Assembly: GCA_048594805.1 (NCBI GenBank)
Contig: JBMDXC010000285.1
Span: 1-57,241 of the forward strand
DNA: 57,241 nt
Origin: Candidatus Entotheonellaceae bacterium
GTDB lineage: Bacteria > Tectomicrobia > Entotheonellia > Entotheonellales > Entotheonellaceae
Reading direction: 5' to 3'
Below are positions 1 through 50,142 of this stretch, piece by piece. Made by a program: the position numbers and the translations under genes. Below the pieces are notes generated by a model. It had not been told where the DNA came from and did no database searches. It saw nothing but the letters and a program-made list of their open reading frames with translations. Every line of letters starts with the position of its first letter. Positions within the stretch are counted from its first letter, which is position 1.

Positions 1-1296
1 GTAGGCGGACTGAATAAGGGTGGACAAGGCATCTACGCGCTCAACATCACTGATCCAACGATCTTTACGGAAGCTGGGGCCGCGAACATTGTGCTGTGGG
101 AATTTACCGATACCAACGACCCGGATCTCGGCTATACTTTCAGCCAGCCATCCATAGTGCGCTTGCATAACCAGAGATGGGCTGCAGTGTTTGGTAATGG
201 CTATAACAATACGGAAAATGACGGCCATGCGAGCACGACCGGTTATGCGGCTTTGTACATCGTCGACATCGAGACTGGTAGCTTGATCCGCAAAATCACG
301 ACCGAGGCTGGATCGGTATCGACCCCGAATGGCTTGGCCACGCCGGCCGTGGTCGACTTCGATGGCGATATCATCGCTGACTATGTGTTTGCTGGCGATC
401 TGCTTGGCAATATGTGGAAGTTCGACATCAGGGATGCCAACGAAGCGAACTGGCGGGTCGCCTATACCGATGCTAGCGGCAAGCCGGCTCCGTTGTTTGT
501 GGCAAAAGACAGTGCCACGCCCACACCAAATCGTCAACCAATTACCGAGCGACCTGAGATCAGTTTTGGGCCAAGAGATACTGATATAATGGTACTTTTC
601 GGTACTGGCAAGTATTTAGAATCGGCTGACAAGTTGCTGACGCCACGGCTTGACCAGAGCTTCTATGGCATTCTCGACTGTAATACGGGCACGTCGAGCG
701 ATATCGTCAGCAGTGGACTGCAGCAGCAGACCATTGACTCCGAAATGAGTGTCACGATTGACAATACCTCGTACAATGTGCGGCTGACCAGTAATAATCC
801 CGTCAACCTGCAATGCAACAACCCGTCCCAAGTCGGTGACCATCGCGGCTGGTATATGAACCTCGTCTCCCCTGTGCAGGGGTATCAAGCAGAGAAGCAG
901 GTCTCAAGACCGCTCTTGAGGAATGGCCGTATCATCTTCACCACCTTGATTCCGGATTCTGATCCTTGCAACTTTGGTGGTAACAGCTGGCTGATGGAAT
1001 TGGACGCATTCACAGGCAAGAGGCTGCAAGAATCGCCATTCGACCTCGAGCGGGATAACGAGTTTACCAAAGAGGACATGGTGCAAGTTACGCTGCCAAA
1101 TAGCACTACCGAGATGATACCCGCCAGCGGTTTACAGTCGACGGTTGGTATCATCCCAAAGCCGGGCGTCCTAGTGGACCCCACGAATCCTGTGGAGTAC
1201 AAGTACACGCCGGGTACCAGCGGCGATATTTCAGTCACAGTCGAGAACCCCGGCGCCAATAGTCACGGCAGACAGGCCTGGCGCCAGCTGCAGTAG
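1..1296 (+). CDS. PilY1-like type IV pilus tip adhesin / biogenesis factor, C-terminal beta-propeller part (5' end outside window)
   Basis: Frame 1 is open from nt 1 (VGGLNKGGQGIYALNITDP...), so the gene starts upstream of the window. PilY1-type motifs are present: LWEFTD..DLGYTFSQP, FGNGYN and FAGDLLGNMWKFD. Confidence 0.8.
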   Translation, partial: VGGLNKGGQGIYALNITDPTIFTEAGAANIVLWEFTDTNDPDLGYTFSQPSIVRLHNQRWAAVFGNGYNNTENDGHASTTGYAALYIVDIETGSLIRKITTEAGSVSTPNGLATPAVVDFDGDIIADYVFAGDLLGNMWKFDIRDANEANWRVAYTDASGKPAPLFVAKDSATPTPNRQPITERPEISFGPRDTDIMVLFGTGKYLESADKLLTPRLDQSFYGILDCNTGTSSDIVSSGLQQQTIDSEMSVTIDNTSYNVRLTSNNPVNLQCNNPSQVGDHRGWYMNLVSPVQGYQAEKQVSRPLLRNGRIIFTTLIPDSDPCNFGGNSWLMELDAFTGKRLQESPFDLERDNEFTKEDMVQVTLPNSTTEMIPASGLQSTVGIIPKPGVLVDPTNPVEYKYTPGTSGDISVTVENPGANSHGRQAWRQLQ

Positions 1297-18472: not shown

Positions 18473-21400
18473 TCATTGGTCGGTATGGAGGCGGACGGTG
18501 TTCTGGGGTGGTGTGTGTGGCGCCCCGCGGAGTTTCTCCTGAATCAGCTCGGGCCTATAGAAGTGCTTGCGCAGTTGCTCCCCTGAGATGTATGTCGCTG
18601 TCTTATCGAGACCCTGATGCATACTGGCGCCAATCAGATGTAAGCCGTGCGCTGAGGCAACAAAATGCCCCTCCGGTGTCCAGGCCACCCATTCGCCATC
18701 CTGCGCTGGAAAGAGGGTCAAGGTGGGCTGGAGTTCGATGGGGCTGGCTGGCATCACTGGCGGGAGTGACCACAGGCACAGGGTTTGATCGTTGGCGCCT
18801 GACAGCGCCCAGCGGCCATCCGCAGACACGGCCACAGCTTTAATTTCTCCGGTATGCCCGACGAGGATGACTCGGAGGCTACCGTCGAGCGCATAGAGCC
18901 GCAATACCCCATTGAGGCCACCTGACAGCACACCCTGCCTGTCAGGGGTAAACGTATAGGCGCTGTGGCGGTAGCCATCGGTATGGCCACGCTCAATCGT
19001 GCTGAGTCGTCGCGTGCCGTCTTGCACATGGAGACGGGCGTTGTGTTTATAAGGCCCCCCTTGCTCGAGCACGAGTGAGAGCGTCCCAAGGCGTTCGAGT
19101 GCCTGCACTGGGGAGGCATCTGAGAGTCCTCCAGGCAGGCGCGTGAACTGGGTCAGGTCAAAACGGTGTTCGAGCGGTCCCTGACGATTGGCAGAAGTAT
19201 AGACAGCGGTATGTCCCCAGCTGAGATAATGACCATCCGGCGAAAAGCCCACAGCATAGATGGTGCGCCCTGCGCCTGCGAGCCGGGTGAGCACCTGGCC
19301 TGTGTGTACCTGCCAGAGCAGGATCTCTTTGTGTTCGCCGCCCCCAGTGGCCACCCACTGGCCACTGGGATGAAACGCCGTTGCCACGACCACATTCTGA
19401 TGGCCGGTAAATACGCGTTCGGTTTTGCCACTCGGATAGGCCAAGAGCGTCAGCCGATCCGGCTGCGGAGGCGAAAAATTGCCCGCCAGCAACCGCGCGC
19501 CATCTGGCGCAAACGCCAGCGCCGAGACCTTGTGGTGTGGCCGAGCAAATACTCCGAGGGCAGCGCCGTCACGGGTCTGCCAGAGACGGATGGTTTGATC
19601 TTTACCACCTGAAGCCAGCACGGTGCCGCTGGGGTGGAAGGCCACCGTTTGCACCTGATCATCATGGCCCTGTAAGCGGGCCACCAGCGTTACTTGATGC
19701 TGCGCCAGCGGCACCGTGTTCCATAAGCCTACCGTGCGGTCATATGAGGCGGACGCCAGACGCTCCCCCGTGGCCGACCAGGCCAGATCATAGATGTGGT
19801 CGGTATGCCCGGTGAGTACCAGAGGGGCCTGGGTGAGAGTCTGACCCTGGAGTGCCGAGAGGTCCCAGAGGCGTATGGTGCTGTCTTTGCCTGCCGAGGC
19901 GAGCCAACGCCCAGCAGGCGAAAAGGCGAGGGCCAGGATCGTGTCGTTATGTCCACACAACAGGGCTACCACCTCGCCACTCGCATAATCATGGAGGCGG
20001 ATGGCGTATCGCTCGCTTGGAGCGCCGGCTAATATACCGCCTACGGCCAACCAGCGTTGCCGTCCATCGGCCTCCGGAGGAGAGAGCGTTGCTGCAGCGA
20101 GCGTGCCCTCGCGACCCTCGCCGATGTACCCGCGGATCGTCCGCGCTAGAGTAGCCTGCCGTCCGTCCGGCGTGACCGCCCAGACCCGAATAGTTTTATC
20201 GTCGCTGATCGAGACCAGTTCGCGACCGTCCGCCGTAAAAAGCAGTTCGCGGATCATGGCGACGTGTCCCCCGGTTTCGACCACCATGCGAGGTGTGCCT
20301 TCTGGCCAGAGGGTGCCTGGCTCCCCAGCAGGCGAGGCCGGGGCCGCTCTCTGGATGCTGTCTTGCGGAGCCGCTCTATCTCTCGCTGGCGGTGCAGCCC
20401 GGCGCTCTTGCTGGACTGTGCCCGGATTGAAGCGGTCTGCATCTCGCATGGTTTGGGGAGGCACAGCGGGTGGCGGGCTCTCGGGCAGTGCCGCCGAGCG
20501 CTCAGGTGCGACAGCCGACACACGCGCTTCTGATGGTACTGTGCGAGAAGGAGCACCGTCCCCCTTGTCAGCACGAGTGGGCGATGGTGTATGCGGTAAG
20601 GGAGGGACGGCTGCTTGTCGCGGTGTGCCTCTGCGAGGTTGGCTTTTCTGAGGGCGTTCCGCGCTCCGTACGGGCTTGGACGGCACTACGGGCGTTGGCG
20701 GTTCTGGCAGCGCCGCAGGTTGTTCAGGCCCTAGAGCCTTGGACTCCACTGTCTCCAGAGGCGGTGACACGTCCGGCGTGTCCATCTGCGGGGTACTCCT
20801 CGTCTGGGTGAGAGTTTGAGGGGGTTCAGAGGGCTCTGATGTCTCAGGGAGTGCTACAGCCTGTACAGAGGAGGTGAGGACTTCATCGGGTGCAACAGTG
20901 GGGGGAAGATATTCTTGCAGGGGTGGCGGAGCAGACAGCGCCGTGAGGGGAGGAGATGCCCTCATCTCAATGGGCTGTTGTGCTGTATCCGCACTGGATA
21001 TGTGTTGGAGACTATGGGCGAGTTGCGATAGATTGTGGCTACCGCGCTGAGAGACAGCCAGATGGTCGTATTGGAACGTACCAGCCAGCCCCGCTACCAC
21101 GAGAACTCCCGCAGCGTATGCCACCCCTCGCCACCACAGTGTCGAGGCGTTTTTGCCTCTATAGGCCGCAATAACATCACGTGCCATAGTGGCAGGAATA
21201 GGCTTTTGCGTGGCCAAAAAGCCCTTGATCAACAGATTCGTACATAGCACATTCATGATGCGCGCATTGCCGCGCGCATATCGCGCGATCTTCCCCATGG
21301 CCTCTACAGTGAAAACCGTGTCTGCACAGATACCGGCCTGCAGCAAGCGATGACGGAGGTAGGCCAGGCTCTCCGTGTAGGTGAGAGGGGCAAGGGTCAC

Positions 21401-21961
21401 ACGCGCCACCAGGCCCTTCTCGACGGACCGTAAGAGCACGCCATTGCCATGCTGGCAGAATGCCGGAAGGCCCGCCATGACGATCTGGAGGAGCGGCTTG
21501 CCTGTCGAGGATCTGCGATGGGCAAACCACAAGAGGCGTTCTAATGTCTCTCGCGGTACGGTGTCGGCTTCGTCAATAATGAGCGCCACTTGCCGACCCC
21601 GTTCGTGCTCGGCGAGCAAGGCATGAGAGAAGGAAGCGGTCAGCTGCTCGGCGTCCTGTGCGATGCCATCGCATCCCAGCTCCCAGCAGATTATCTTCAA
21701 GATATCAGACGTGGACAGCTTTGGATAAAAGATATGAACTGCTTTGAGGTGCTGCAGATTGCTATGAGCGAGAGCGGCGTGGAGCAGAAACGTTTTCCCC
21801 AGCCCTGGCTCTCCCAGGAGAGTAATCACTGCCTGCCCGGCTTGCAGGGCATGAAGAAGAGCCGGTAAAGCGGCCTTATAGCTGCCACCCAGAAACAGCA
21901 TGTCTGGAGTGGCCGTGTTCGAGAAAGGATCATGCTGCAGGCAATAAAAATCGAGATACAT
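18473..21961 (-). CDS. ExeA/GspA-like AAA+ ATPase, one TM helix, Pro-rich linker, multi-blade WD40 protein
   Basis: The N-terminus MYLDFYCLQHDPFS is ExeA-like. GEPGLGKT is Walker A and ALIIDEAD is Walker B. The hydrophobic segment WWRGVAYAAGVLVVAGLAGTF is at nt 21074-21136. About 260 aa of P/A/S/T/R-rich sequence follow, then 10 or more blades ending IRVWAV, IRLWDL, VGLWNT, IRLWQT, ILLWQV, LRLYAL, LCLWSL. Confidence 0.85.
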   Translation of the reverse strand: MYLDFYCLQHDPFSNTATPDMLFLGGSYKAALPALLHALQAGQAVITLLGEPGLGKTFLLHAALAHSNLQHLKAVHIFYPKLSTSDILKIICWELGCDGIAQDAEQLTASFSHALLAEHERGRQVALIIDEADTVPRETLERLLWFAHRRSSTGKPLLQIVMAGLPAFCQHGNGVLLRSVEKGLVARVTLAPLTYTESLAYLRHRLLQAGICADTVFTVEAMGKIARYARGNARIMNVLCTNLLIKGFLATQKPIPATMARDVIAAYRGKNASTLWWRGVAYAAGVLVVAGLAGTFQYDHLAVSQRGSHNLSQLAHSLQHISSADTAQQPIEMRASPPLTALSAPPPLQEYLPPTVAPDEVLTSSVQAVALPETSEPSEPPQTLTQTRSTPQMDTPDVSPPLETVESKALGPEQPAALPEPPTPVVPSKPVRSAERPQKSQPRRGTPRQAAVPPLPHTPSPTRADKGDGAPSRTVPSEARVSAVAPERSAALPESPPPAVPPQTMRDADRFNPGTVQQERRAAPPARDRAAPQDSIQRAAPASPAGEPGTLWPEGTPRMVVETGGHVAMIRELLFTADGRELVSISDDKTIRVWAVTPDGRQATLARTIRGYIGEGREGTLAAATLSPPEADGRQRWLAVGGILAGAPSERYAIRLHDYASGEVVALLCGHNDTILALAFSPAGRWLASAGKDSTIRLWDLSALQGQTLTQAPLVLTGHTDHIYDLAWSATGERLASASYDRTVGLWNTVPLAQHQVTLVARLQGHDDQVQTVAFHPSGTVLASGGKDQTIRLWQTRDGAALGVFARPHHKVSALAFAPDGARLLAGNFSPPQPDRLTLLAYPSGKTERVFTGHQNVVVATAFHPSGQWVATGGGEHKEILLWQVHTGQVLTRLAGAGRTIYAVGFSPDGHYLSWGHTAVYTSANRQGPLEHRFDLTQFTRLPGGLSDASPVQALERLGTLSLVLEQGGPYKHNARLHVQDGTRRLSTIERGHTDGYRHSAYTFTPDRQGVLSGGLNGVLRLYALDGSLRVILVGHTGEIKAVAVSADGRWALSGANDQTLCLWSLPPVMPASPIELQPTLTLFPAQDGEWVAWTPEGHFVASAHGLHLIGASMHQGLDKTATYISGEQLRKHFYRPELIQEKLRGAPHTPPQNTVRLHTDQ

Positions 21962-22036
21962 GATGGCACGACTCTCAGCTTGAAAGATAACCCGCATGCC
22001 GAGGATATACGGCAAGCATATTTCACCTAGAGCGTC

Positions 22037-23947
22037 TCATGGCGCCGAGACTGTGACTGGGGCGTCTAAGGTGGCGGTCGGGACAAAGGGCGCATCCACC
22101 ACCCCGAGCAGCCTATCGCCTGATGCCGATCGCACAGACCACGTCACTTCAGTCGCTACCAGGGGTGTTTCTGCCTCCAGGACGAAGGTAATCCTGCCAT
22201 ACGCATCAGCACTGCAGACGATGCGGTTGTTGGCTCTGTCAATAGGGACGACGGTCTGCCCTTGGAGGTCTTGGCACTCGGAGGCGGCTGTGAATTTACC
22301 TATGCCTCCCACCCGCGCCAGGGAGACAGGATCTCCTATGGGGTTGCGCACCGTGACGCGAAACCGGCCAGCCCGCACGCTCCTGGCCAGTTGAGTGCCC
22401 AGGACACTTTCAACACCAAAGCGAATACACGTGTTCAGGTGTACTGCCAGCTCTGTGGCGCGACCAACAGGCACGCCTCCCGCACGTAAGTCTTCTTCCA
22501 AGATCTCGCCACGCGGACTGCCTGTGGCATCCTGCCGGGTCAACACGTTGGTGAGGATCGCCTCGTAGCTGGCAGCAGGCGGGTTTCTGGCTTCAATGAG
22601 TAGAGCCTTGAAGAGAGCAATGGCTGTATACGACGTCGCTCCAGCACCCACATATTGAATCGCACCCTCTTGCGGATTGCTGATACGCAACGAGCACACC
22701 AGGCCATCCCCATTGGTATCAGCGATGATCCTCCCTTCCGAAGTGACCACGGTTTCCACCCGCACAATACCGCCGGATGGGGTCTTCAGGGCGCCAATAT
22801 CGGTGAGGAAGTTGGCCTCGACTGCCTGGGCGGCCTGCGAGGGAAGCTGGGGGAGAATGAAAGTCGTGAAAATCTGGTGTGCCGGCGACACGTCCTGCCC
22901 CGTCAGCAGTTCGCCTGACTGCCTGGCCCGTACAAAGGCAGAGACAGCGAACTGCGGCTCGGGAGCACATCTCACGAAACCGGCAAGGCCAGCGGGCACC
23001 CCCAGAAAATACATCCCCTGCGCATCGGTAATCGTCCGCAGCGGCTGGCCGTTGTTGCCGAGCAGTCGTATACCTTGTGGAAAAAATCGGGCAGATGCCT
23101 TTTGGAGGCTCGCATCGCGCTTGAGATTTGCCGCAATAGCCTGTAAATCTGCACGATCTAAAGCACCATCCAGGAGGTCGGCAAGTGCCGTGTCACCTTT
23201 AGAATCCAGGACAAATTCGCACGGGGCGTTGACAAAAGGTGAAAGCTCTGCACCATCGCCCGCGGCCCCTGCGGTGCCACCGGTGTCGCTATCACTACTG
23301 CCAACACCGCTGCCACCGCTGTCAGTACCACTACCGGCGTCACTCGTGTCATCACTCTCCGTGCTACCAGTGCTACTGAAGTCTACCGCAGTGATCTGCT
23401 GCTGCAACATGGCGTTGAACAAGTCTATGGCCGTGTTGACCAGCACAGTGAGATCTGGGTCCTGAGCTTGGAGGGCAGCCAGGATCTCAGCCTTGCGAGC
23501 TTGTGGATCAGACGGAGCTGTTTGCGCCAGAATCTCTGCGATAACGGTTGTGCGTGGCGATACCTCCTCCAAGCCATTCGCGGGCAGGAGCCCCCCAGCT
23601 ATGCCACCCACGGTGCTGACAAAGGTTGTCAGGCCAAGGTTTGAGAGTCCTTCAGGAGTGCACACGAGCCATCCTTGGCTCTCTAGCGGCGCTCCGAAGC
23701 GGAACTCCCCATTGCTATCGGCTGTCACTGTGGCGAGTTGGTGCCCTTTGAGATTCGTAAAGCGGCACTGGGCATTGGCAATGGGTGACATCGCCAAGCC
23801 ATCATCGACTCTGCCTTGAAGCGTCACCAGACTCTGGGTCGTGTCACCGCCCCCGCTGCCCGCATCATCTCCATCACCGCAATGCGAGAGTATGAGCGAG
23901 AAAAGGGTCAAAAGGATAGAAAGATAAACTATTTTGAAATGTTTCAT
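22037..23947 (-). CDS. Secreted protein / probable lipoprotein with carboxypeptidase-regulatory-like beta-sandwich modules and an acidic Ser/Gly/Asp linker
   Basis: Signal peptide MKHFKIVYLSILLTLFSLILSHCGDG. Repeated modules resemble LQGRVDD...TADSNGEFRF and RTITDAQGMYFLGVPAG. Start moved to 23947. The ORF-track start at 24019 is an alternative. Confidence 0.7.
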   Translation of the reverse strand: MKHFKIVYLSILLTLFSLILSHCGDGDDAGSGGGDTTQSLVTLQGRVDDGLAMSPIANAQCRFTNLKGHQLATVTADSNGEFRFGAPLESQGWLVCTPEGLSNLGLTTFVSTVGGIAGGLLPANGLEEVSPRTTVIAEILAQTAPSDPQARKAEILAALQAQDPDLTVLVNTAIDLFNAMLQQQITAVDFSSTGSTESDDTSDAGSGTDSGGSGVGSSDSDTGGTAGAAGDGAELSPFVNAPCEFVLDSKGDTALADLLDGALDRADLQAIAANLKRDASLQKASARFFPQGIRLLGNNGQPLRTITDAQGMYFLGVPAGLAGFVRCAPEPQFAVSAFVRARQSGELLTGQDVSPAHQIFTTFILPQLPSQAAQAVEANFLTDIGALKTPSGGIVRVETVVTSEGRIIADTNGDGLVCSLRISNPQEGAIQYVGAGATSYTAIALFKALLIEARNPPAASYEAILTNVLTRQDATGSPRGEILEEDLRAGGVPVGRATELAVHLNTCIRFGVESVLGTQLARSVRAGRFRVTVRNPIGDPVSLARVGGIGKFTAASECQDLQGQTVVPIDRANNRIVCSADAYGRITFVLEAETPLVATEVTWSVRSASGDRLLGVVDAPFVPTATLDAPVTVSAP

Positions 23948-24033
23948 AAAAACACCGTCCAGTATATCCTGGCCATGTGTGGATACTATAAAAAGAAGCT
24001 CGAATAAAATGTAACCCATTTAATATAAGTATC

Positions 24034-24062
24034 ATTATGCTTTGATACTTTCTCTATAGCAA
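24034..24062 (-). promoter_or_regulatory. Candidate sigma-70 promoter TTGCTA-17-CATAAT for the secreted-protein / WD40 operon
   Basis: Read on the minus strand inside a clearly AT-rich island, about 80 nt upstream of the ATG at 23947. Confidence 0.4.
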
Positions 24063-24090
24063 GAGAAAATGCATTTTTCATTCCATAGAT

Positions 24091-24119
24091 CTTTAACTCT
24101 TTGGTCTTTAACTCTTTGG
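24091..24119. repeat. Tandem direct repeat, 2 x 14 nt (CTTTAACTCTTTGG) separated by 1 nt
   Basis: Copies at 24091-24104 and 24106-24119. They lie about 30-60 nt upstream of the candidate -35. Confidence 0.8.
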
Positions 24120-24315
24120 CTCTTTGCAGCTTTCTCACTATGTCTGCACAGCGGGTGGTTGCAGAGAACACAGGTCGTAGAAATGGCCCTTTCATTTCTC
24201 TAAAAAATGGTTCTTTCAAAGAGCCACTTCTCTCGGTACACTTTGCCTGGACCCTTGGGCATGTGGTGCCCGTGGGCCGTGTCTCTTCTGCAGGAGCGCG
24301 AGGGAGCAACATATT

Positions 24316-30723: not shown

Positions 30724-32202
30724 TCACTGCGCCCGCTGGCTCTGGCGCGACTCGCCGTGGCGTATTTTGGCGGCACGCTTGCGTTTCTCTTGCTGTTGTG
30801 CCGCCGGTCCCGAAAAAGCCTCGTTGAGTTCCTGCTCCATGGTAGACAGCTTGTCGGTTACCGCCTGATTCTCCACCCTGACACCTGTGTCGCTTGCCGC
30901 CTTCTGCAGGGCCTGGCGATAGTCAGTGATGGCTTGCTGTGCCTTCGACTTATCACCAGCCCGTAGCCAGTGGCTGTAGTCCTGCTGCAGCCGTCCGAGA
31001 TTGTTGCCTTCCCAGAGCTGTTGGACCAGACCTCGGTGCACCGACGCCGTCGCTTCGTCACGCCGGGTCGGCTCCAGCACGGCGATACGCAGGTGTTCAG
31101 GCGCTAACGCTATGCTGCTCGTTCCCTGGCTGGTGGTGTAGTGCAGCGTGACGTTGCCTAAGCCGATCTCGCCAACGCGGTCGGTGGGGACGGTCATGGT
31201 CACTACGAAACGCTTTGTGGCACCGCCCAACAGTTGCCCAGTAGAGACGCGCGCCGTACCGGGCTGCGCGGTCAGGTCAATGGGATACCCACCTACATCG
31301 GTGACGGTGACACCGTCGCCGCACGTGATCTCAAGACTGCTGGCACTGGCAAACACCTGGCGCGTGTCAGACATGTCCTGCTCCAGGATCTCTCCGAGTT
31401 TTTCCAGATGTTCCAAGTACGCGTAATGGCCCATACCGTAATCCGCCAGCGTTGCCATGAGTGTTTCATTAAACCCAAGTCCCATGCCGATCGTGGACAG
31501 CACCGCGCTGTATCCTGTAAAGCTCGCGGCGATTTTTGCCAGTTCCCTGGGCTCGACGATACCCATATTAGCCTCACCATCAGACAGTAAAATCACCTTG
31601 CGCTTGCGCTGGCGCGACTGTGTCGGCGCAGGGCCGTCAGGCCCTTCCTCGGCGTTCCCTTGTAGCAAGGCGCGGGCCTTGAGTAAGCCGTCGCCGATGT
31701 TCGTCGAGGCCCCAGGCTGGATGGCACGCACCCGCCGCACGATGCGCTCACGTGCGGCGTCCGTGACAGGCGTAAGCTCGGTGTCAACCACAGCGACGGA
31801 ATCAAACGTGACTAGGGCGAACCGATCGTCTGCTTGTAGTTGCCGCAGCAGACGGCGCACTGCCTCTTGCGCGTAGGACAACCGATTTTCTGCTGCCATC
31901 GAACCGCTGCGGTCGAGTACCACCACGATGTCGCTGGCTTGCACGCGAGAGGGCGAGAGCGTTGCTGCGGGCGTGGCAATGCTCAAATCAAGGTACATGA
32001 CCCCATTCCCACCCTGCACGAGCTTCGTCTGGGATAACGTTCCCGACAAGGTGACGCCGTCAGCACCTGCGCCGCCGCCACCTCCTGTGGCCTGGGGCGC
32101 TAGGGCTATTGCCGCGGTCCCCACTATCAGAGCTACAAAGAGCCCTAGAGACCATCGGGGCGAGCGCAATATGTGAGCGATGCGTGTGATGAGATGTGGC
32201 AT
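30724..32202 (-). CDS. Membrane-anchored von Willebrand factor A (VWA) domain protein
   Basis: N-terminal TM (WSLGLFVALIVGTAAIAL). MIDAS-type VVVLDRSGSM motif. GGAGGAA Shine-Dalgarno site. Basic, helical C-terminal tail. Confidence 0.8.
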   Translation of the reverse strand: MPHLITRIAHILRSPRWSLGLFVALIVGTAAIALAPQATGGGGGAGADGVTLSGTLSQTKLVQGGNGVMYLDLSIATPAATLSPSRVQASDIVVVLDRSGSMAAENRLSYAQEAVRRLLRQLQADDRFALVTFDSVAVVDTELTPVTDAARERIVRRVRAIQPGASTNIGDGLLKARALLQGNAEEGPDGPAPTQSRQRKRKVILLSDGEANMGIVEPRELAKIAASFTGYSAVLSTIGMGLGFNETLMATLADYGMGHYAYLEHLEKLGEILEQDMSDTRQVFASASSLEITCGDGVTVTDVGGYPIDLTAQPGTARVSTGQLLGGATKRFVVTMTVPTDRVGEIGLGNVTLHYTTSQGTSSIALAPEHLRIAVLEPTRRDEATASVHRGLVQQLWEGNNLGRLQQDYSHWLRAGDKSKAQQAITDYRQALQKAASDTGVRVENQAVTDKLSTMEQELNEAFSGPAAQQQEKRKRAAKIRHGESRQSQRAQ

Positions 32203-43036: not shown

Positions 43037-45499
43037 CTATTTCGATGTAAGCGCCCACGAGCCATCCCAATGCGGCTCAGGAGGGTGCTCTTTCAAAAAC
43101 TCACAGCGTTCGATATACACGCGACTTGGCGTAGTGGGGCGCCGCGGGAACACGTCTTCGAGCTTCTCGCTGGCGATGAATTTCGCCATGGCCTCATCCC
43201 ACTGCTGCTGCCGATAGAGATCAATGCCCTGCTGGTATATGGCATGCATCTGGACGTGCTCTGAGGGCAATTGTCCCTTGTATGCCATGATCTCCACACT
43301 CTCTATGGCCTCTAGCTTGCCCACCACCTTGACTTTGTCGATCGTACGCCAGGCAAAATCATCAGGACCAGCCAGCCGCAACGTCTCGGTGGTGCACAAG
43401 ATATAGACACCATATTGCTTCGCCGCGGCTTCGAGCCGCGCCGCGGTGTTCACCACGTCCCCCATCATAGTGTAGTTCATGCGCATGGTCGAGCCCATAT
43501 TGCCGGTGACGATTTCCCCAGAACTGATGCCAATACGCATGCGCATCTGCTGCACCAGGTCAGGCCACTTGTCTCCTTCAGCATGCCATTTCTGGCGCAA
43601 TCGCGCCAGTGCCTGCTGCATCTTAAGCGCCACGCGCACGGCGCGTGCCGCGTGGTCTGGCTGCGCAATCGGTGCGCCAAAGAACGCCACAATCGCATCT
43701 CCTTCATACTTATCAAGGGTCCCACCTTCGGCAACTAAAATGTCCGTCATTGCAGACAAATACTCGTTGAGGAGTTCGACAAGCTGCGTGGCGCTGAGGA
43801 CTTCTGAGAAGCTCGAAAAGGAGGCGATGTCCGTAAAGTACGCCGTGCGCATGCCTGACGAGCCCCCGAGTCTGGGCTCTATGCCATCGCGCACCATCAT
43901 GGTGACGAGCTCCGGGGAAAGGTACGTGCTAAAAGTCTTACGCAGGTAGCGACTTTGCCTCTGCTCAAACAAAAAGTGGTAGATGGTCATGCCGAGCCAG
44001 ACTACGAACGTGGCCAGCAGGGGATACATGATATGCAACACCCATCCTTGCATGCTGAAGAGGGCGTAGTTCAGCCCCACGTTCCCCAGCATGACCAGGG
44101 TTGTGACGATGTCACCCCAGAGAGCACCCAGACGTGGCAAGATCAGTATGAGGCATAATCCCGTCAGCACGATATTAGCGGTGGTGTACCAGTTCCCCCA
44201 CCAGGGGGCCACGAGAAAACGCTGGCGCAGGACATTGTCAATCACGGTCGCGTGCGTCTCCACCCCGGGAAATGCCGGGTCGAAGGGAGTAATGCGCTGA
44301 TCCGTGAGCCCTACGGCAGTGGCCCCGATCAGGACGATCTTATCGCGGAAGGCCTCGGGTGGGGCAGCAGTCTCACGGCCTTTGACGATATCGGCGATAG
44401 CATAGCGTGGGAAGCGGTATTGACGACGCGCTGTGGTCTCGTTCGCGGGAAGCTCGGAGGGACCGAGATGATTGACAATCATCCGTCCCTGCTCGTCAGC
44501 GGGGATCTCCAAGCGTTGGCGTCCCGCCACCAGCCACACCTGGATTTTCTGGTCAGCACTAATGGACACAAGTGTGTTGGCATTGCCGTGACGCGCTTGT
44601 AGATAGCGCTCCAGGAGGCGCATGCCCAGCGGCGCAAAGAGATCGTTTTGCTGCCCAGGAGCCGTTGCCTCCCGACCACTGTCCCCCGACACACCCATAC
44701 GCTCACGGTACTGCGCGATGAGCGGATAATACCGAATGACGCCGTCGTCCGAGTCCGGACGGCTATTAAAAAAGCCGTTCCCCCAGACAGCCTGGGATAA
44801 AACCGGCAGATTGGACTCAGCCGCACAGGCCGGTGATACGTGCAACACACCCAGGCTGGCCCCGGGCTCCACTCTGGGGATATACCTGGCGTTTTTCGAG
44901 ATGGTCAGATTGTGGAAAAAATGCTCCAGTTGACTTGCAGGCACATGGGCGACGTCCTGGCATTGCCAGTGAAAAAAGTAGCCCAGAATCGTCCGACCCG
45001 ATGCTTGCAGGGCAGTGGCGAAGAGCTGATCGTGATCTGCCGCGGCCAGGGTAGACTCTACGAGCCCTTGCAGCTCTGCATCATTATAATAGCTACGGGT
45101 CGCCAGAGAAGCTTGAATCGTCTGCAAGCTGTCAAGGCCAGCACTGGTATCTGATGACGAGAAGACCACATCGTAGCCGATGGCTGCAGCGCCGTATGCG
45201 GTCAGGCGCTGGATGAGTTGCGCCTGCACCGTATAGGGCCATGGCCAGCGGCCCAGCTCATCAACACTCTGTTCATCGATGGCCGCAATCACCACCTCAG
45301 GGCCAGGCGCCATGGGGCCCCGCATCCGGAAGCGCAGATCGGAGGCGAGCAGTTCGAGACGATGCAGCCACGCCACCACAAAAGGCTTCTGCATCTGGTG
45401 GGTCTGGTCGAGCCAAAAGAGCAGCAGCACCATGAGGGTCAGCAGCAGTCCAAGGGTCGTACTGTGCAAGCGCGGGAAATGCGTGAGCCAGGCGGGCAT
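43037..45499 (-). CDS. CHASE2-sensor class III adenylate/guanylate cyclase
   Basis: CHASE2-like periplasmic region, a TM cluster and a cyclase domain ([36 protein letters not shown]). ATG at 45499 with GAGG upstream. Confidence 0.85.
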
Positions 45500-45563
45500 A
45501 CTGCACCTCACTGATGCGTCCGTACGTATACGCGCCTAGCGTATAGTCTCGAGCATGCTGGCG

Positions 45564-46281: not shown

Positions 46282-48561
46282 CTATGAGGAGAGGCGCTCG
46301 GCGCCGGAAGAGAGGCAATAGGCGTCATACAGCCGTGCCGCCTGCTGCATATGGTGGGCAATCGTCTGTGCCAATTGGGCTGGGGTGTCCTGCTCCTTCC
46401 AGTAGCCCATACGCCGTGCCAAAAAGATACATGCATCAGTGTCTACCGCAGGTAACACAAGATCGTGCGCCTGCCCGCTGGCCAGGCGCAGGGCATCGAT
46501 GAGATGGCGTAAAAAGACATAGGCGTCATGCAACGAGTGGTAGTCCGTGACGCTTATAATGTCAGCTTGGTAGAGTGCCTGCAGGGCGGCGAGCGTATGC
46601 GGGGTACGCAGAGCAGGGACGGTGGCACCGTGGCGCAGTTGGAGATATTGCACGGTATATTCAATATCCACCAGGCCACCCCGACTGTATTTGACGTCGA
46701 CGGCGCCCGGTGCCACCAACTCATGACGCTGGCGCTGGCGGAGCTGGATGGCTGTCTCCAGAGCAAAAGGCTCGGCACTGTAGACAAAGGCATCGCGGAG
46801 GGTTTCGACAGCCTGTCGGAGAGCCGCGTCGCCAGCCACTTCGCGCAGTTTGATCAGCGCCTGGCGTTCAAAAGGCGCTGCCTGCCCGCCGTGGCGATAG
46901 TACTCCCGAAAGGCGTCAAGACTGGTCGCCAGCGGGCCTTTCGAGCCAAAGGGGCGCAGGCGTAAGTCGATCTCAAAGGTCCCCGAGCGTCGCGCCACGA
47001 TGATCTCGAGGAGCTGTTGCACGAGCAGTTCGGCGTACTGACTTACAGCAATTTGCTGAGGTCCACTGGTCTGCCCCTGGCCGCTATAGACGCAGAGCAT
47101 TTCCAGGTCAGACGCATACCCCAACTCACGACCCCCGAGCTTGCCGAGACCAAAGAGCGCAAACGTACAGGGCTGGCCATCCATGAGTTGTGGGCGGCCA
47201 TAGCGCGCTTGCAGCGCGTTCTGGGCCAACTCCAAGGCTCCCGCCAGGACTACCTCCGCCAGGTCCGCCAGTTCATCTGAAAATACGCCAAAGGGCCTTT
47301 CACGATGTAAGAGATGCCCCATATCAATACGAAACAGCTCTTGATCCTTAAAGGCGTTGAGGGCGTGTTTGCCGGCAGCCGTCGTCGTCGCCCCCTGCAG
47401 AGCCTGCCGCAGGCGTACCGTCAAATCGTCCTTGCTCAGGCGTTGCTCAGCAGCGCGTAAGTCCTTGAAGATAGGCAGGAGTGTATCATAGTGCAGACGC
47501 AGGAAATCTTCCCATAGGAAGTGACTGCTCCCCAACACCGTTGCTAGTGCCTTTAAGGCGTTGTCCTCCCAGAGCCACTGCAGATCTTCGCCACGCGCCG
47601 CATCACCAGCAAGACGGTCCACGAGGCGGTCAAAGTGCTGCAAGGCCATCACCGGATCAGGCGCGACGGTGAGAAAATGCGTGAACTGCTTGATCAGCAT
47701 GACCATGAGGTGCAGCTCACGCTGACCGGCCGCCGAGGTGATTTTACCCCCACGACGCCAGCGCACAAAGAGCTGATCATGGACTTTGCCCATGGAGCTG
47801 GCGATGTTCACACGGTAGATATAAATATCACGCATGGCCAGGGCATTGGAGAGACTGTAGAGAAACGCCGGGGTATCGTCGGCACGGATGTGCACGACCG
47901 TCCAGTCTGCCGAGGCCTCGTTATCAATCGTAATCTCCACGGGAAAAAGATGAGCCGAGAAGGCCTGCAGTGAGGTGCGCATGGTGTCGATGATCTGGCC
48001 ACTCAGGCTGGCGCGCGCTTCCTGCAGCTGCCCAGCGCGTAGCTGTTGAATGAGCGTCGTGAGCTGGGCCGTGAACTCCGTCTGCGCCGCGCTGTTAAAG
48101 GGGCGCTCGGCAGCATACTCGACGGTAAACACGTCGACGATGAGCCCACCCGGTGTGGTACCCCAGAGTGTGGCACGTCCTGGACCGCGGTGATAACTAA
48201 ACACTTGGCCGTCACGAATATTGAGGCCATAGGCCGTCATTAAGCCTGTGATAATGGAAAATTCGCCAAAGAGATCGTAGGCTGCAACCAGGATCTCCGC
48301 CTTGTTGGCAGGACGCGATATGACGCGTATCTGCACGGGATGTTGATCGTCCACGGCGGCCAGCAGCAGCACATGGGTGGTGATCTCGGCTACGCTAAAC
48401 ACCCGAAAATAATCATCATCGAGCTGTGCGAATACCTCGTCAAGCACCTGCGGCGGCACGTCTGGACACCGTTGGGCCACTTCCTGGCGTAGCATCTGTC
48501 GGTCGGCCAGAGGTGCTGCGGGACTCCCATGCTGCACGGCGGTTCTCCCCTCTTTTCCCAT
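46282..48561 (-). CDS. glnE: GlnE adenylyltransferase-type module preceded by two ACT-like domains (stand-alone half of GlnE)
   Basis: C-terminal ~460 aa carry the GlnE nucleotidyltransferase motifs GLGKLGGRELGYASDLEMLCVY, IDLRLRPFG and VDVKYSRGGLVDIEY. The N-terminal ~300 aa contain two GlnD-like ACT patterns (ILVAAYDLFGEFSIITGLMTAYGLNI and VVHIRADDTPAFLYSLSNALAMRDIYI). Confidence 0.75.
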   Translation of the reverse strand: MGKEGRTAVQHGSPAAPLADRQMLRQEVAQRCPDVPPQVLDEVFAQLDDDYFRVFSVAEITTHVLLLAAVDDQHPVQIRVISRPANKAEILVAAYDLFGEFSIITGLMTAYGLNIRDGQVFSYHRGPGRATLWGTTPGGLIVDVFTVEYAAERPFNSAAQTEFTAQLTTLIQQLRAGQLQEARASLSGQIIDTMRTSLQAFSAHLFPVEITIDNEASADWTVVHIRADDTPAFLYSLSNALAMRDIYIYRVNIASSMGKVHDQLFVRWRRGGKITSAAGQRELHLMVMLIKQFTHFLTVAPDPVMALQHFDRLVDRLAGDAARGEDLQWLWEDNALKALATVLGSSHFLWEDFLRLHYDTLLPIFKDLRAAEQRLSKDDLTVRLRQALQGATTTAAGKHALNAFKDQELFRIDMGHLLHRERPFGVFSDELADLAEVVLAGALELAQNALQARYGRPQLMDGQPCTFALFGLGKLGGRELGYASDLEMLCVYSGQGQTSGPQQIAVSQYAELLVQQLLEIIVARRSGTFEIDLRLRPFGSKGPLATSLDAFREYYRHGGQAAPFERQALIKLREVAGDAALRQAVETLRDAFVYSAEPFALETAIQLRQRQRHELVAPGAVDVKYSRGGLVDIEYTVQYLQLRHGATVPALRTPHTLAALQALYQADIISVTDYHSLHDAYVFLRHLIDALRLASGQAHDLVLPAVDTDACIFLARRMGYWKEQDTPAQLAQTIAHHMQQAARLYDAYCLSSGAERLSS

Positions 48562-48576
48562 GTGAGCGTTGCGGGG

Positions 48577-50142
48577 CTACAGCGCCGATTCATCTTGAAA
48601 GGCTTCAACAAAAATCGCGTGCACGGCCTCCGTACGCTCGAGATAGTCTTGATAAAAAGCCTCCCAGGTGGGATAGCCAAAATGGCCTGCCAACCGCCGC
48701 TGCTGGTCAGGATGGCGTGGCAGCGTATGGGTCTGCGCGCCTTGTTCCATCTGGAGATAGTGTTCGAGACGACGCAAATAGCCATACGTGGAGCGCAAGG
48801 TCGTCGCAACGGACGATGTCATGAGTCCTGCCTCACGCAACTTGCTCAGGGCACGCAACGAGTGGCGTTCTTGCAGCGTCGGTTGGCGTCCGCCATACAG
48901 CAGCTGGGGCAGCTGAATCAGAAATTCGATTTCCCGAATACCCCCCAGGCCGAGTTTCACGTTGGTGCGTGACTGCGCCTTGTCAGCCAGTTGGGCATCA
49001 ATCTGACGCTTCATAGCGCGCAGCTGCCGCACGCCCTGCGCATCCAGATGGCTCTGATACACAAAGGGTCGAATCAGCGCCAGAAATTCTTCGCCAAGAC
49101 GACGGTCACCGGCCACAGGACGCGCTTTGATGAGCGCCATTCTCTCCCATGTTTGCCCCAGACGCGCGTAATACGCTTCATAGGAGAGGAGGGAGAGCGC
49201 CAACTGCCCCTGCGTCCCCTCCGGGCGCAGGCGCAGGTCGACACGAAACGCCTGACCCTCCGGCCCCTGGCCCCCAATGAGTGTCGTGAGACGGCGTGCC
49301 AGGGCCACAAAATATTCATGATTTGAGATCTGTTGCCGGCGCTCACCGTTCTCCCCAAAACCACTCGTGCTGCCCTCGTATGACGTGTAGACATACATGA
49401 GGTCCACATCGGAGGAAAAGTTCAACTCGTAACCACCGAGTTTACCCATACCAATAACGCAGAAGCCACAGGGATGTTGTACCCCATCAGCGTCAATGTA
49501 CATGGGGACGCCATACAGCGCTGTCAACCAGCGTACACACGCCTCAAGCCCTGCCTGTATGACACAGTCAGCCAGCGCCGACAGGTCTGCAGTAGTTTCT
49601 TCCACGTTCGCAAGTCCATAGAGGTCACGGGCCCCAATACGAAGTAAGTGTTGCTGGGTGAACGTCCGCAAAAGTGTGGCGACCTCGCCTTCCCCCTCTA
49701 CACCGGCCAGGAGCTGCGTGATCTCCGCGGTCAGTACCGCTGGCGGCGGTGGCGGCGCCCACAAGGCGTCCTCCAGCAGCCAGAAGAGGAGCTGTGGACG
49801 GCGCCAGAGAATACTGCTCAGCAACTGTGAACTCGCAAAAAAACGCATCATCCCAACAAACGCCTCCGGGTACTGCACGACAGTAGCCCAGAACGCGGCG
49901 ATGTCTGGCACATTGTCCAGGTAGCATAGCAGATGATTAATGGCACGTTGCGGGTCTACCGAAGTGAGGACGGCTTGGGTAAACTCTATAACGAGCGTCG
50001 CAGGGACGGTCTGCTGGTTTGCGTGGCGCAACACGAGGGCCAGCTCAACGGCTAGACGTGGAGAGACGCCATCGGAGGACATGGTACGCAAAAGTAGCGT
50101 AAGGTATGCCTCACTGTAGAGATTGTCAGTGGCTTCCTGCAT
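48577..50142 (-). CDS. glnE: GlnE adenylyl-removase-type module (stand-alone N-terminal half of GlnE)
   Basis: GMGKLGGYELNFSSDVDLMYVY, VDLRLRPEG, WERMALIKARPVAGD and NVKLGLGGIREIEF. AGGAGAGGG lies before the ATG. Confidence 0.8.
   Translation of the reverse strand: MQEATDNLYSEAYLTLLLRTMSSDGVSPRLAVELALVLRHANQQTVPATLVIEFTQAVLTSVDPQRAINHLLCYLDNVPDIAAFWATVVQYPEAFVGMMRFFASSQLLSSILWRRPQLLFWLLEDALWAPPPPPAVLTAEITQLLAGVEGEGEVATLLRTFTQQHLLRIGARDLYGLANVEETTADLSALADCVIQAGLEACVRWLTALYGVPMYIDADGVQHPCGFCVIGMGKLGGYELNFSSDVDLMYVYTSYEGSTSGFGENGERRQQISNHEYFVALARRLTTLIGGQGPEGQAFRVDLRLRPEGTQGQLALSLLSYEAYYARLGQTWERMALIKARPVAGDRRLGEEFLALIRPFVYQSHLDAQGVRQLRAMKRQIDAQLADKAQSRTNVKLGLGGIREIEFLIQLPQLLYGGRQPTLQERHSLRALSKLREAGLMTSSVATTLRSTYGYLRRLEHYLQMEQGAQTHTLPRHPDQQRRLAGHFGYPTWEAFYQDYLERTEAVHAIFVEAFQDESAL

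Follow-up and report, generated by a model that had tools for sequence, protein, structure and literature searches.

Two genes on the minus strand of the window (the whole 57,241-nucleotide stretch of DNA analysed, 57 kb) make up the locus described here, which comes from an uncultured bacterium (Table 1). The ORF list of the window gave back both genes at unchanged coordinates and reproduced the same-strand arrangement with a 75-nt gap that the initial annotation had reported. The downstream gene encodes a protein in five parts: an ExeA-type AAA+ ATPase, a hydrophobic helix, a linker, WD40 blades and a helical tail. Its ORF covers 18473..22015, with the MYLDFY start at 21961 and a second possible start at an in-frame ATG at 21997. 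The upstream gene, hereafter the partner gene, lies in an ORF that reaches 24019, and its likely start is the MKHFKIVYLS sequence at 23947. No terminator-like site was found in the spacer scanned between the two genes. The other neighbours of the ATPase-WD40 gene are an MFS transporter gene, a VOC-family gene and a molybdopterin oxidoreductase gene.

Table 1. Features of the ATPase-WD40 gene and its partner gene (window coordinates).
Feature	Coordinates	Strand	Residues and basis
ATPase-TM-linker-WD40 gene	18473..21961	-	1162 aa; Pfam, NCBIfam, homologues
Helical tail, part of WD40 module	18476..18655	-	aa 1103-1162; conserved columns in family alignment
WD40 propeller module, predicted exported	18656..20296	-	aa 556-1102; ~11-12 blades; WD40 E 2e-61 (Pfam)
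Pro/Ala/Ser-rich disordered tether, predicted periplasmic	20297..21064	-	aa 300-555; composition, model
Single predicted transmembrane helix GVAYAAGVLVVAGLAGTFQY	21068..21127	-	aa 279-298; hydropathy, model
ExeA/GspA-type AAA+ ATPase and helical lid, cytoplasmic	21158..21961	-	aa 1-268; AAA_22, TIGR03015
Walker B	21569-21586	-	D130, E131
Walker A GEPGLGKT	21791-21814	-	aa 50-57
Intergenic spacer	21962..22036	-	75 nt; 39 nt with ATPase start at ATG 21997
Partner gene, predicted lipoprotein	22037..23947	-	636 aa; ORF list
Beta-sandwich 2 (aa 224-340), helical region (aa 355-523), beta-sandwich 3 (aa 526-632)	22052..23278	-	AlphaFold model m0d51ffd6af0d
Acidic Ser/Gly/Asp linker, predicted disordered	23282..23380	-	aa 190-222; pLDDT, sequence
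Beta-sandwich 1, CarboxypepD_reg/transthyretin-like	23561..23830	-	aa 40-129; Pfam PF13620, model
Signal peptide and lipobox-like LSHC, Cys23	23879..23947	-	Hydropathy, homologue lipoboxes; Gly/Asp-rich tether next

The ATPase domain matched Pfam AAA_22 (residues 42-166, E 3e-12) and aligned end to end, over residues 1-265, with the ExeA-like NCBIfam model TIGR03015 (model positions 1-264 of 269), bearing out the proposed Walker A/B AAA+ module with an ExeA N-terminus. The TIGR03015 score, 127.7 bits, lies below the curated cutoff of 324.5. As in the ExeA/GspA family, the protein begins with a COG3267/AAA_22 P-loop ATPase whose Walker A and B motifs are intact. In an alignment of 11 family members, G50, G53, G55, K56, T57, D130, R227, R230, G231, N232 and R234 do not vary, and at least 90% of the sequences keep E131, the glutamate of Walker B; ARGN.R is a conserved motif of the domain. 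The AlphaFold model places an alpha/beta core at residues 45-189. Full-length homologues (P0001-P0013) share 49-91% identity with the window protein, and homologues carry the JGI label "type II secretory pathway predicted ATPase ExeA". Matches to other NTPase models stayed below threshold (NACHT, 19.9 bits vs 26.7; NB-ARC, 11.8 vs 23.5), and the Pfam search of the protein returned no STAND-type NTPase domain (NB-ARC, NACHT, nSTAND) above it.

The predicted transmembrane helix is the highest hydropathy peak of the whole protein, but it is only moderately hydrophobic: its Kyte-Doolittle value is 1.53, the classical threshold being 1.6. The segment is Ala/Gly-rich, with a naive Hessa sum of about +3.7, and is flanked by three K/R residues on its N side vs one on its C side, a positive-inside bias. 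AlphaFold positions the helix at 274-292, in a full-length model of low confidence (pLDDT 56). Its position is kept across the family, and relatives are more hydrophobic there. The linker that comes next has 256 residues (19.5% Pro, 13% Ala, 10% Ser), in agreement with the Pro/Ala/Ser-rich stretch of about 260 residues noted at the outset. It is modelled at pLDDT below 35 and matches no Pfam domain even at E<=1; its sequence varies, yet it is present in all family members aligned.

Ten or more WD40-like blades had been counted by the initial annotation, and the model accommodates that count, with about 46-48 beta strands between residues 559 and 1102, hence about 11-12 blades. Foldseek matches of the region are canonical propellers, both single and tandem, and include Apaf-1. 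This module is the best-conserved part of the protein. In the tail the model has helices at residues 1105-1145, and tblastn alignments of the module to other genomes run to query residues 1140-1150. The tail matched no Pfam domain with the limit relaxed to E<=1, and at this limit neither PG_binding_1 nor OmpA_C was detected anywhere in the protein, linker and tail included, as expected from the claim that the peptidoglycan-binding domain is missing. A caspase (Peptidase_C14) domain is likewise absent from the protein in the Pfam search and from the scanned neighbours.

The WD40 module was found in 12 other loci, from Candidatus Entotheonella and Desulfobacterota, at 51-69% identity over the best tblastn segment. 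ATPase-free modules match query residues ~555-1150 with 55-69% identity, and module copies start at the same PRLV-EAGGH motif, right after a cleavable signal peptide or a lipobox. The exported copies are fused to Big_7 and Peptidase_C14 (Ig-caspase) or to a CsgG/TolB_N/FlgO-like domain; Peptidase_C14 domains occur in L008 and L011-L015. Since orthologous copies stand directly behind export signals, the module is an exported domain, and the WD40 array of the window protein is very probably exported as well. Partner-like and OmpA genes are found beside exported module genes in L013, L017 and L018, and OmpA-family genes adjoin in L008, L017, L018 and L053. Among close ExeA-like relatives the same helix is followed by an OmpA, DUF4384 or DUF1161 domain (DUF4384 in the ATPase of L053), and in-frame MFS-ATPase fusions occur. 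These fusions argue for a cytoplasmic ATPase, as do the positive-inside bias and the periplasmic domains that follow the helix in relatives. Judged from such comparisons, the topology first proposed, with the WD40 array outside the cytoplasm, appears sound: the helix position is conserved, orthologous modules stand behind signal peptides, and the protein would have the single transmembrane helix and periplasmic C-terminal part of the ExeA/GspA family.

The partner had been taken for a secreted CarboxypepD_reg-like protein. The signal peptide and the beta-sandwiches hold, but the protein is a predicted lipoprotein (Cys23) and not merely secreted. Its signal helix has a Kyte-Doolittle value of 1.99 over residues 6-24; at the equivalent place homologues show VSGC, LATC or LGSC, all canonical lipoboxes, and they keep C23 in at least 90% of cases. 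The PF13620 (CarboxypepD_reg) match, at residues 42-86, scores 29.8 bits vs a threshold of 32.3, which relatives of the partner exceed, and the AlphaFold model (pLDDT 84, pTM 0.75) has strands at residues 40-129. The pLDDT falls below 50 at residues 196-219 and is mostly above 85 in the segment of residues 224-632. Foldseek gave transthyretin-like matches, local only, and no global PDB match to the model. Clustering at 90% identity divides the family into 59 clusters, each of them unnamed or called just "hypothetical protein"; at 50% identity there are 400 representatives. Cadherin-like, lectin, CBM30 or BACON domains form the C-terminal end of longer relatives and suggest that the lipoprotein has a binding role outside the cytoplasm. 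Its anchor probably sits on a periplasm-facing membrane leaflet, possibly that of the outer membrane.

The partner gene adjoins the ATPase-WD40 gene in 12 of the 13 loci examined (the window, L001, L002, L003, L006, L045, L048, L049, L050, L055, L061 and L062), so the two are conserved neighbours, as the claim of the initial annotation demanded, and remain so where the gene order is inverted (L002, L006 and L062). The one unpaired locus, L065, has no partner on its short contig. Flanking genes vary from locus to locus while the pair, found in many metagenomes, stays intact. Such pairing supports the description of a two-gene module, of which the ATPase is not an obligatory part. In three Entotheonella loci (L007, L009 and L016) the lipoprotein gene lies directly upstream of a signal-peptide-WD40 gene, so that WD40 module and lipoprotein are paired without the ATPase. 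In L053 the lipoprotein is paired with an OmpA protein and a different ExeA-like ATPase, and in L004, L005 and L051 it has no ATPase-WD40 neighbour at all. A full-text literature search combining ExeA and WD40 returned PorE papers only and no description of the ATPase-TM-linker-WD40 architecture, for which databases offer only labels assigned automatically, for instance "WD40 repeat protein/ExeA". Together with the lipoprotein it looks like an undescribed cell-envelope module, as the initial annotation had suggested.

The ORF scan of the window took in the larger ORFs, among them every gene next to the pair, and passed over some 14 smaller ones. Among the ORFs scanned there was no secretin, GspB, pilin or exosortase gene, in line with the stated absence of such genes next to the pair, and no PEP-CTERM gene; no T2SS gene was seen among the larger ORFs of the window, nor any exopolysaccharide machinery encoded near the pair. 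The flanks of L001, L003 and L045 were also free of secretin, GspB, pilin and exosortase genes. The window also has a fragment of a PilY1-like gene (positions 91-1296), 17 kb away from the pair. Apart from generic WD40 repeats, PADLOC recovered nothing from a defence family.

Several known systems resemble the pair in part. Like ExeA/GspA of the Aeromonas/Vibrio T2SS, the window protein has an N-terminal cytoplasmic AAA+ ATPase starting MYLDFY...PF and, by prediction, a single transmembrane helix directly after it and a large periplasmic C-terminal part, and its gene stands beside a second envelope protein gene. Unlike ExeA/GspA, it carries a Pro-rich tether and a WD40 array in place of the peptidoglycan-binding domain, its neighbour is a 636-residue beta-sandwich lipoprotein instead of GspB/ExeB, and no secretin or T2SS genes accompany the pair among the larger window ORFs. 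In ExeA itself a single transmembrane helix joins the cytoplasmic ATPase to the periplasmic domain, and the protein must multimerise for an outer-membrane complex to be assembled (PMC4098917). The XrtA/PEP-CTERM-associated ATPase family (TIGR03015) is the best-scoring curated model and aligns over its full length; the window protein differs from this family in its score, far under the cutoff, in the lack of exosortase and PEP-CTERM genes among the window ORFs scanned, and in the helix and WD40 extension that the family model does not include. The exported WD40-Ig-caspase proteins of Candidatus Entotheonella and Desulfobacterota MAGs share the WD40 module, its start motif and its tail, often with partner-like lipoprotein and OmpA genes close by, but have a signal peptide where the window protein has ATPase, helix and tether, and end in Ig and caspase domains that the latter lacks.

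In the type IX secretion system, PorE (PG1058) combines a WD40-annotated beta-propeller, a CarboxypepD_reg-like domain and lipoprotein anchoring, a likeness to the window pair in domain set and architecture only; its OmpA_C domain has a counterpart in loci related to the pair. It is a proposed scaffold joining envelope layers, with a periplasmic propeller (PMC7192894; domain set also in PMC12773672). Unlike the window pair, PorE is one polypeptide, lacks an ATPase and is confined to Bacteroidota. TolA and TonB resemble the window protein in that an inner-membrane anchor carries a long, extended spacer through the periplasm to a partner in the outer envelope; Tol/Ton energy comes from a proton-motive-force motor, whereas the window protein has an AAA+ ATPase. 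In TolB-Pal and in Mycobacterium Rv3035-FecB, a periplasmic propeller-lipoprotein scaffold (PMC13041763), a beta-propeller binds a lipoprotein, as we infer for the window pair, although these propellers are no tandem WD40 arrays of the G-beta type, and neither these systems nor TolA and TonB are homologous to it.

On the analogies of ExeA-ExeB, PorE, TolB-Pal and Rv3035-FecB, we tentatively favour a two-gene trans-envelope scaffold, a proposal that falls just short of being probable, in which a cytoplasmic ATPase positions a periplasmic WD40 platform that binds the lipoprotein. The first gene's product would be a bitopic inner-membrane protein with its ExeA/GspA-type ATPase in the cytoplasm and a Pro-rich tether of ~256 residues carrying the tandem WD40 platform into the periplasm. 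Nucleotide-dependent oligomerisation of the ATPase would cluster and position the platforms; this role for ATP, and with it the earlier suggestion that the propeller is driven by the ATPase, is an inference. The platforms would bind the lipoprotein, with its three transthyretin-like beta-sandwiches and helical segments, a contact suggested by the adjacency of the genes. The resulting inner-membrane-to-outer-envelope scaffold might then help to build some structure of the envelope or cell surface, or to keep it in place. Export of the module in orthologues, the conserved pairing and the envelope setting given by neighbouring OmpA-family genes speak for this proposal. Against it count the moderate hydrophobicity of the helix, the low confidence of the full-length model, the lipoprotein genes with no ATPase-WD40 neighbour, the unpaired locus L065 and the absence, among the ORFs scanned near the pair, of a target such as a secretin, a pilus or exopolysaccharide machinery.

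Other readings share some of this evidence. In the classic STAND protein WD40 repeats come after the NTPase, as they do here, and the exported WD40 array might act as an outside-in receptor, a STAND NTPase with its sensor shifted across the membrane, that senses a periplasmic ligand (the lipoprotein or its ligand) and controls ATPase oligomerisation, with output through a cytoplasmic partner. The below-threshold matches of the ATPase and its relatives to NACHT, NB-ARC and nSTAND models, Apaf-1 among the Foldseek matches, and the extracellular WD40 sensor proposed for membrane-bound orthocaspases (PMC7475262) are consistent with this, yet we consider it unlikely: the ATPase sits at the very N-terminus, leaving no effector or adaptor domain, the end-to-end match is to the ExeA-like and not a STAND model, a disordered tether of 256 residues is a poor carrier of conformational signals, and helix and tether separate the ATPase from repeats that are exported in orthologues, whereas STAND sensor repeats share the NTPase's compartment. 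It is quite unlikely that the protein is a GspA/ExeA-like assembly factor, its WD40 domain replacing peptidoglycan binding, that serves a machine for secretion, pili or exopolysaccharide whose genes lie elsewhere in the genome. Homology to ExeA and the PEP-CTERM-associated ATPase, the PilY1-like fragment and the glycan-binding domains of lipoprotein relatives would fit, but the secretin, GspB, pilin and exosortase genes sought among the larger ORFs of the window and in the three sets of flanks were not found, TIGR03015 scores far under its cutoff, and the pair persists while flanking genes change.

A further origin is suggested by the signal-peptide-WD40-Big_7-Peptidase_C14 proteins, which among genomic sequences are nearest to the module: the pair might derive from an exported caspase system, with WD40 array and lipoprotein serving for recognition or regulation in a periplasmic orthocaspase pathway (proteolytic processing, conflict or cell death). 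In this lineage the ATPase anchor would then have taken the place of the protease. Partner-like and OmpA genes accompany some such proteins, and the DUF4384 of the L053 ATPase is a known orthocaspase accessory domain (PMC7475262), but the lack of a caspase domain in the window protein and its neighbours and the generic PADLOC result make such a derivation improbable. Very improbable is a wholly cytoplasmic ATPase-WD40 protein whose hydrophobic segment is not a membrane helix and whose adjacency to a lipoprotein gene is incidental. Canonical bacterial WD40 repeats are mostly cytoplasmic, and the helix is Ala/Gly-rich with a Kyte-Doolittle value under 1.6; against this stand the signal peptides and lipoboxes of orthologous modules, the conserved helix position with strong hydrophobicity in relatives, and adjacency in 12 of 13 loci despite gene-order inversion. 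The scaffold proposal also has a bolder, decidedly doubtful version, an ATP-powered counterpart of TonB/TolA: the ATPase would move or remodel the WD40 platform through helix and tether and so act on the outer-envelope lipoprotein, the same core being reused with an exported caspase elsewhere. If true, this would be a new route for cytoplasmic energy to the outer envelope.

The 1162-aa ATPase-WD40 protein matches AAA_22 at aa 42-166 and gives strong WD40 signals in Pfam, and the NCBIfam ExeA-like model TIGR03015 aligns end to end with aa 1-265, at 127.7 bits against a cutoff of 324.5. In an alignment of 11 family members (49-91% identity), Walker A (GEPGLGKT) and D130, the aspartate of Walker B, show no variation, E131, the glutamate of Walker B, is kept in at least 90% of members, and the ARGN.R motif of the ATPase and a hydrophobic helix at aa 279-298 (GVAYAAGVLVVAGLAGTFQY) are conserved. 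Thus, the initial annotation of an ExeA-type ATPase with Walker A and B motifs is borne out, with the model score below cutoff. The linker (aa 300-555), noted at the outset as some 260 residues rich in Pro, Ala and Ser, indeed contains 19.5% Pro, 13% Ala and 10% Ser; its sequence varies across the 11 proteins while its presence is constant, and conservation is highest in the WD40 part. An AlphaFold model of the whole protein, built from a shallow alignment and of low confidence overall (pLDDT 56), comprises an alpha/beta ATPase core, lid helices, a helix at aa 274-292, an unstructured stretch at aa 300-557, about 46-48 strands forming about 11-12 blades, where ten or more had been proposed, and a helical tail. 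Foldseek searches with this model recovered canonical WD40 propellers, single and tandem. The linker and the C-terminal tail have no Pfam match at E≤1; the negative control for a peptidoglycan-binding domain, whose absence had been proposed, is therefore clean. A PDB sequence search with the ATPase domain returned nothing useful, exact-sequence look-up of the protein matched no contig, and PADLOC found no defence-system matches apart from generic WD40 repeats. An assembly chimera was rejected, the full-length fusion being present on more than 10 independent contigs.

Positions of features in the window and in homologous loci (L numbers) on other contigs
Locus	Position	Strand	Feature
Window	18473-22015	-	ATPase-WD40 ORF; family-conserved MYLDFY start at 21961
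Window	21995-21997	-	Second in-frame ATG, 12 codons 5' of MYLDFY
Window	22037-24019	-	Partner ORF; likely start MKHFKIVYLS at 23947
Window	91-1296	+	PilY1 beta-propeller domain ORF at edge of window (E 2e-40, C-terminal half of model)
Window	30724-32202	-	vWA-domain protein, 492 aa
Window	43037-45511	-	CHASE2-adenylate/guanylate cyclase, 824 aa
Window	46282-50142	-	Two adjacent GlnE-like genes (521 aa and 759 aa), each with GlnE and GlnD_UR_UTase domains
L001	5929-7803		Additional 624-aa WD40 protein, inserted upstream of partner gene
L007	11828-12343		Terminal domain of ~170 aa, weak CsgG/FlgO/TolB_N similarity, no caspase (Entotheonella)
L009	11759-12271		As in L007
L045	7915-13559		Syntenic with window locus, 83-89% identity
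L046	10001-11044		Paralogous ExeA-like ATPase, 347 aa, 53% identity
L046	19027-19695		Second AAA_22 gene, 8 kb from the paralogous ATPase
L053	572-5040		ExeA-like ATPase-TM-Pro/Ala linker-DUF4384 (522 aa), secreted OmpA-family protein (186 aa), partner
L065	72-4841		MFS transporter fused in frame, N-terminal to ATPase-TM-WD40 (P0003, P0010, P0014)

Since the peptide preceding MYLDFY (MRVIFQAESRAIMYLDFY) is conserved with the MFS-fusion relatives, the real start may be at 21997, leaving a 39-nt gap to the partner gene. These fusions carry Asn in place of the canonical Met1 (...MRVVFQARKRAINYLDFY) and are probably real, being seen in three clusters with 33 member sequences. Read-through into the MFS gene downstream of the window pair was rejected as their origin: the MFS joined in frame at the N-terminus is a different one, only 23% identical to that neighbor.

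The helix at aa 279-298 is the highest hydropathy peak of the protein (Kyte-Doolittle 1.53; naive Hessa sum about +3.7), and the charge bias around it is positive-inside. Hydropathy on its own is not decisive for topology. A scan with the family alignment, in which each GTDB species was represented by one genome, located the WD40 module (query residues ~555-1150) in Candidatus Entotheonella (TSY1, DD2, palauensis) and in Desulfobacterales/Thermodesulfobacteriota MAGs, with 51-69% identity in the best tblastn segment, and never together with the ATPase; Candidatus Entotheonella and Desulfobacterota MAGs are the nearest genomes for module and partner alike. In all 12 of these loci a classical signal peptide or a lipobox precedes the module, which begins some 25-45 residues further on, at PRLV-EAGGH. 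C-terminal to it lie Big_7 and Peptidase_C14 domains (L008, L010-L015, L017 and L018) or a CsgG/TolB_N/FlgO-like domain (L007 and L009), sets typical of periplasmic proteins. ATPase relatives carry OmpA, DUF4384 or DUF1161 domains after an equivalent, more hydrophobic helix. In the MFS fusions the ATPase follows the MFS domain and, because canonical 12-helix MFS transporters end in the cytoplasm, should be cytoplasmic. Relatives, fusions and charge bias agree in suggesting a cytoplasmic ATPase with an exported C-terminal part. On these grounds, and because the same module sits behind an export signal in 12 of 12 loci, it is very probable that the WD40 array lies outside the cytoplasm, as originally proposed; that the whole protein is cytoplasmic seems highly improbable.

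The ATPase-WD40 and partner genes are separated by 75 nt, in which a promoter/terminator scan found no terminator-like site; no tRNA or Rfam element was found near the locus. Full-length ATPase-WD40 homologues occur on metagenome contigs only. The partner adjoins the ATPase-WD40 gene in 12 of the 13 loci examined, lying upstream of it in the window, L001, L003, L045, L048, L049, L050, L055 and L061 and downstream in L002, L006 and L062. The single exception, L065, is a short contig bearing an MFS fusion. Flanking genes differ between loci (nitrile hydratase genes occupy in L001 the place of the window's MFS gene), and the survival of the pairing through inverted gene order and changed flanks argues for selection on adjacency. 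The partner is also found alone (L004, L005 and L051), beside a diverged ExeA-like ATPase (L052; 38% identity) and, at 57% identity, in the three-gene set of L053, which ties the lipoprotein to an ExeA-like ATPase in a setting that lacks WD40. Thus, the co-occurrence of the two genes that the initial proposal required holds in both gene orders, but the partner does not depend strictly on this ATPase.

The extra WD40 protein of L001 (a locus 80% identical to the window's, which lacks this gene) has an N-terminal hydrophobic, lipobox-like leader and ~28% identity to the window module. In L045, gene calling assigns the ATPase (316 aa) and the WD40 part (853 aa) a gene each and breaks the partner into fragments, likely because of long-read assembly frameshifts rather than a real split. 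The paralogous ATPase of L046, a contig from the same sample as L001, has the helix without a large periplasmic domain and lies among unrelated, unannotated genes.

The partner (636 aa) had been described as a signal-peptide protein with beta-sandwich modules and an acidic linker. All three elements were recovered, and the description can be refined to that of a predicted lipoprotein, since the signal-peptide helix is followed by Cys23 within LSHC and homologues have canonical lipoboxes (VSGC, LATC, LGSC) at the aligned position. Its AlphaFold model (pLDDT 84, pTM 0.75, from a 41-sequence alignment) consists of a beta-sandwich (aa 40-129), three helices, a disordered acidic Ser/Gly/Asp linker (aa 190-222), a second beta-sandwich, a helical region and a third beta-sandwich. 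No PDB structure matches it globally, Foldseek giving only local transthyretin/CarboxypepD_reg-like matches (TM-score ~0.1 on the query), and a PDB sequence search with the partner profile returned nothing useful. All members of the family come from metagenomes (59 clusters at 90% identity, 400 representatives at 50%) and are unnamed or labelled only "hypothetical protein". In longer relatives the N-terminal ~380 residues are retained, and the C-terminus is formed by cadherin-like, legume-lectin, CBM30, BACON or Ig-repeat domains, which fits an extracytoplasmic binding protein.

Partner genes at 44-45% identity lie directly upstream of the signal-peptide-WD40-CsgG-like genes of L007 and L009, another uncharacterised architecture paired with the lipoprotein, and of the WD40 gene of L016, whose C-terminal domain is cut by the contig end. 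Weaker partner-like genes accompany signal-peptide-WD40-caspase genes in L013, L017 and L018, and OmpA-family genes are adjacent in L008, L017, L018 and L053. Three elements recur, namely the WD40 module, the lipoprotein and a peptidoglycan binder of the OmpA type, and their companion is an ExeA-like ATPase anchor in some cases and an exported caspase in others. Module and lipoprotein therefore form the stable core, and the ATPase-helix-tether is one of several alternative attachments.

To our knowledge, almost all that is known of ExeA/GspA-type ATPases concerns a peptidoglycan-binding role in helping type II secretins to assemble. The window protein shares their ATPase and predicted topology but lacks the peptidoglycan-binding domain and, among the larger ORFs scanned in the window, the GspB/secretin context; it scores below the cutoff of TIGR03015, the XrtA/PEP-CTERM ATPase model. 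Periplasmic beta-propellers are commonly scaffolds for lipoproteins or envelope machines. PorE is one such scaffold, with WD40, CRD and OmpA_C domains (PMC7192894, PMC12773672), and Rv3035-FecB exemplifies a propeller binding a lipoprotein or envelope machine (PMC13041763). ExeA needs its cytoplasmic ATPase for complex formation, attaches to peptidoglycan through its periplasmic domain and, by multimerising, drives the outer-membrane secretin to assemble (PMC4098917). By analogy, it seems conceivable, if somewhat short of an even chance, that the window protein serves as a trans-envelope scaffold: its cytoplasmic domains would assemble in an ATP-dependent manner, the tethered WD40 platforms would cluster, and the clustered platforms would hold the lipoprotein. 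An outside-in, STAND-like receptor is unlikely; by Pfam thresholds the protein is not a STAND NTPase. Service to a distant secretion, pilus or exopolysaccharide system is somewhat less likely, and no secretion system lies nearby. Descent from an exported caspase pathway, with which the WD40 module is shared, is slightly more doubtful still.

The anatomy and conservation of the pair are solid. The literature search found no published description of an ExeA-type ATPase-WD40 architecture, and database entries bear automatic labels only. In this family the ExeA/GspA chassis of cytoplasmic ATPase and helix bears another periplasmic domain, a tandem WD40 array of the G-beta type, and is linked to a conserved lipoprotein. 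Domain swapping on such a chassis is not revolutionary in itself; exported tandem propellers of this type on an AAA+ anchor are unusual. The loci provide clear genomic evidence for export of canonical WD40 propellers in several bacterial lineages, the same module occurring with a signal peptide, a caspase, a CsgG/TolB_N-like domain or an ATPase anchor attached. Should the scaffold or energy-coupling role prove true, the pair would be a new type of trans-envelope connector and would offer a way into the exported WD40-caspase proteins, a large and uncharacterised class.

Elsewhere in the window, the PilY1-like ORF, 17 kb from the locus, is the sole pilus-related gene seen. The GlnE-like gene pair may reflect the splitting or duplication of a glutamine synthetase adenylyltransferase gene, and the CHASE2-cyclase and vWA-domain protein fit a signalling-rich, large-genome organism.
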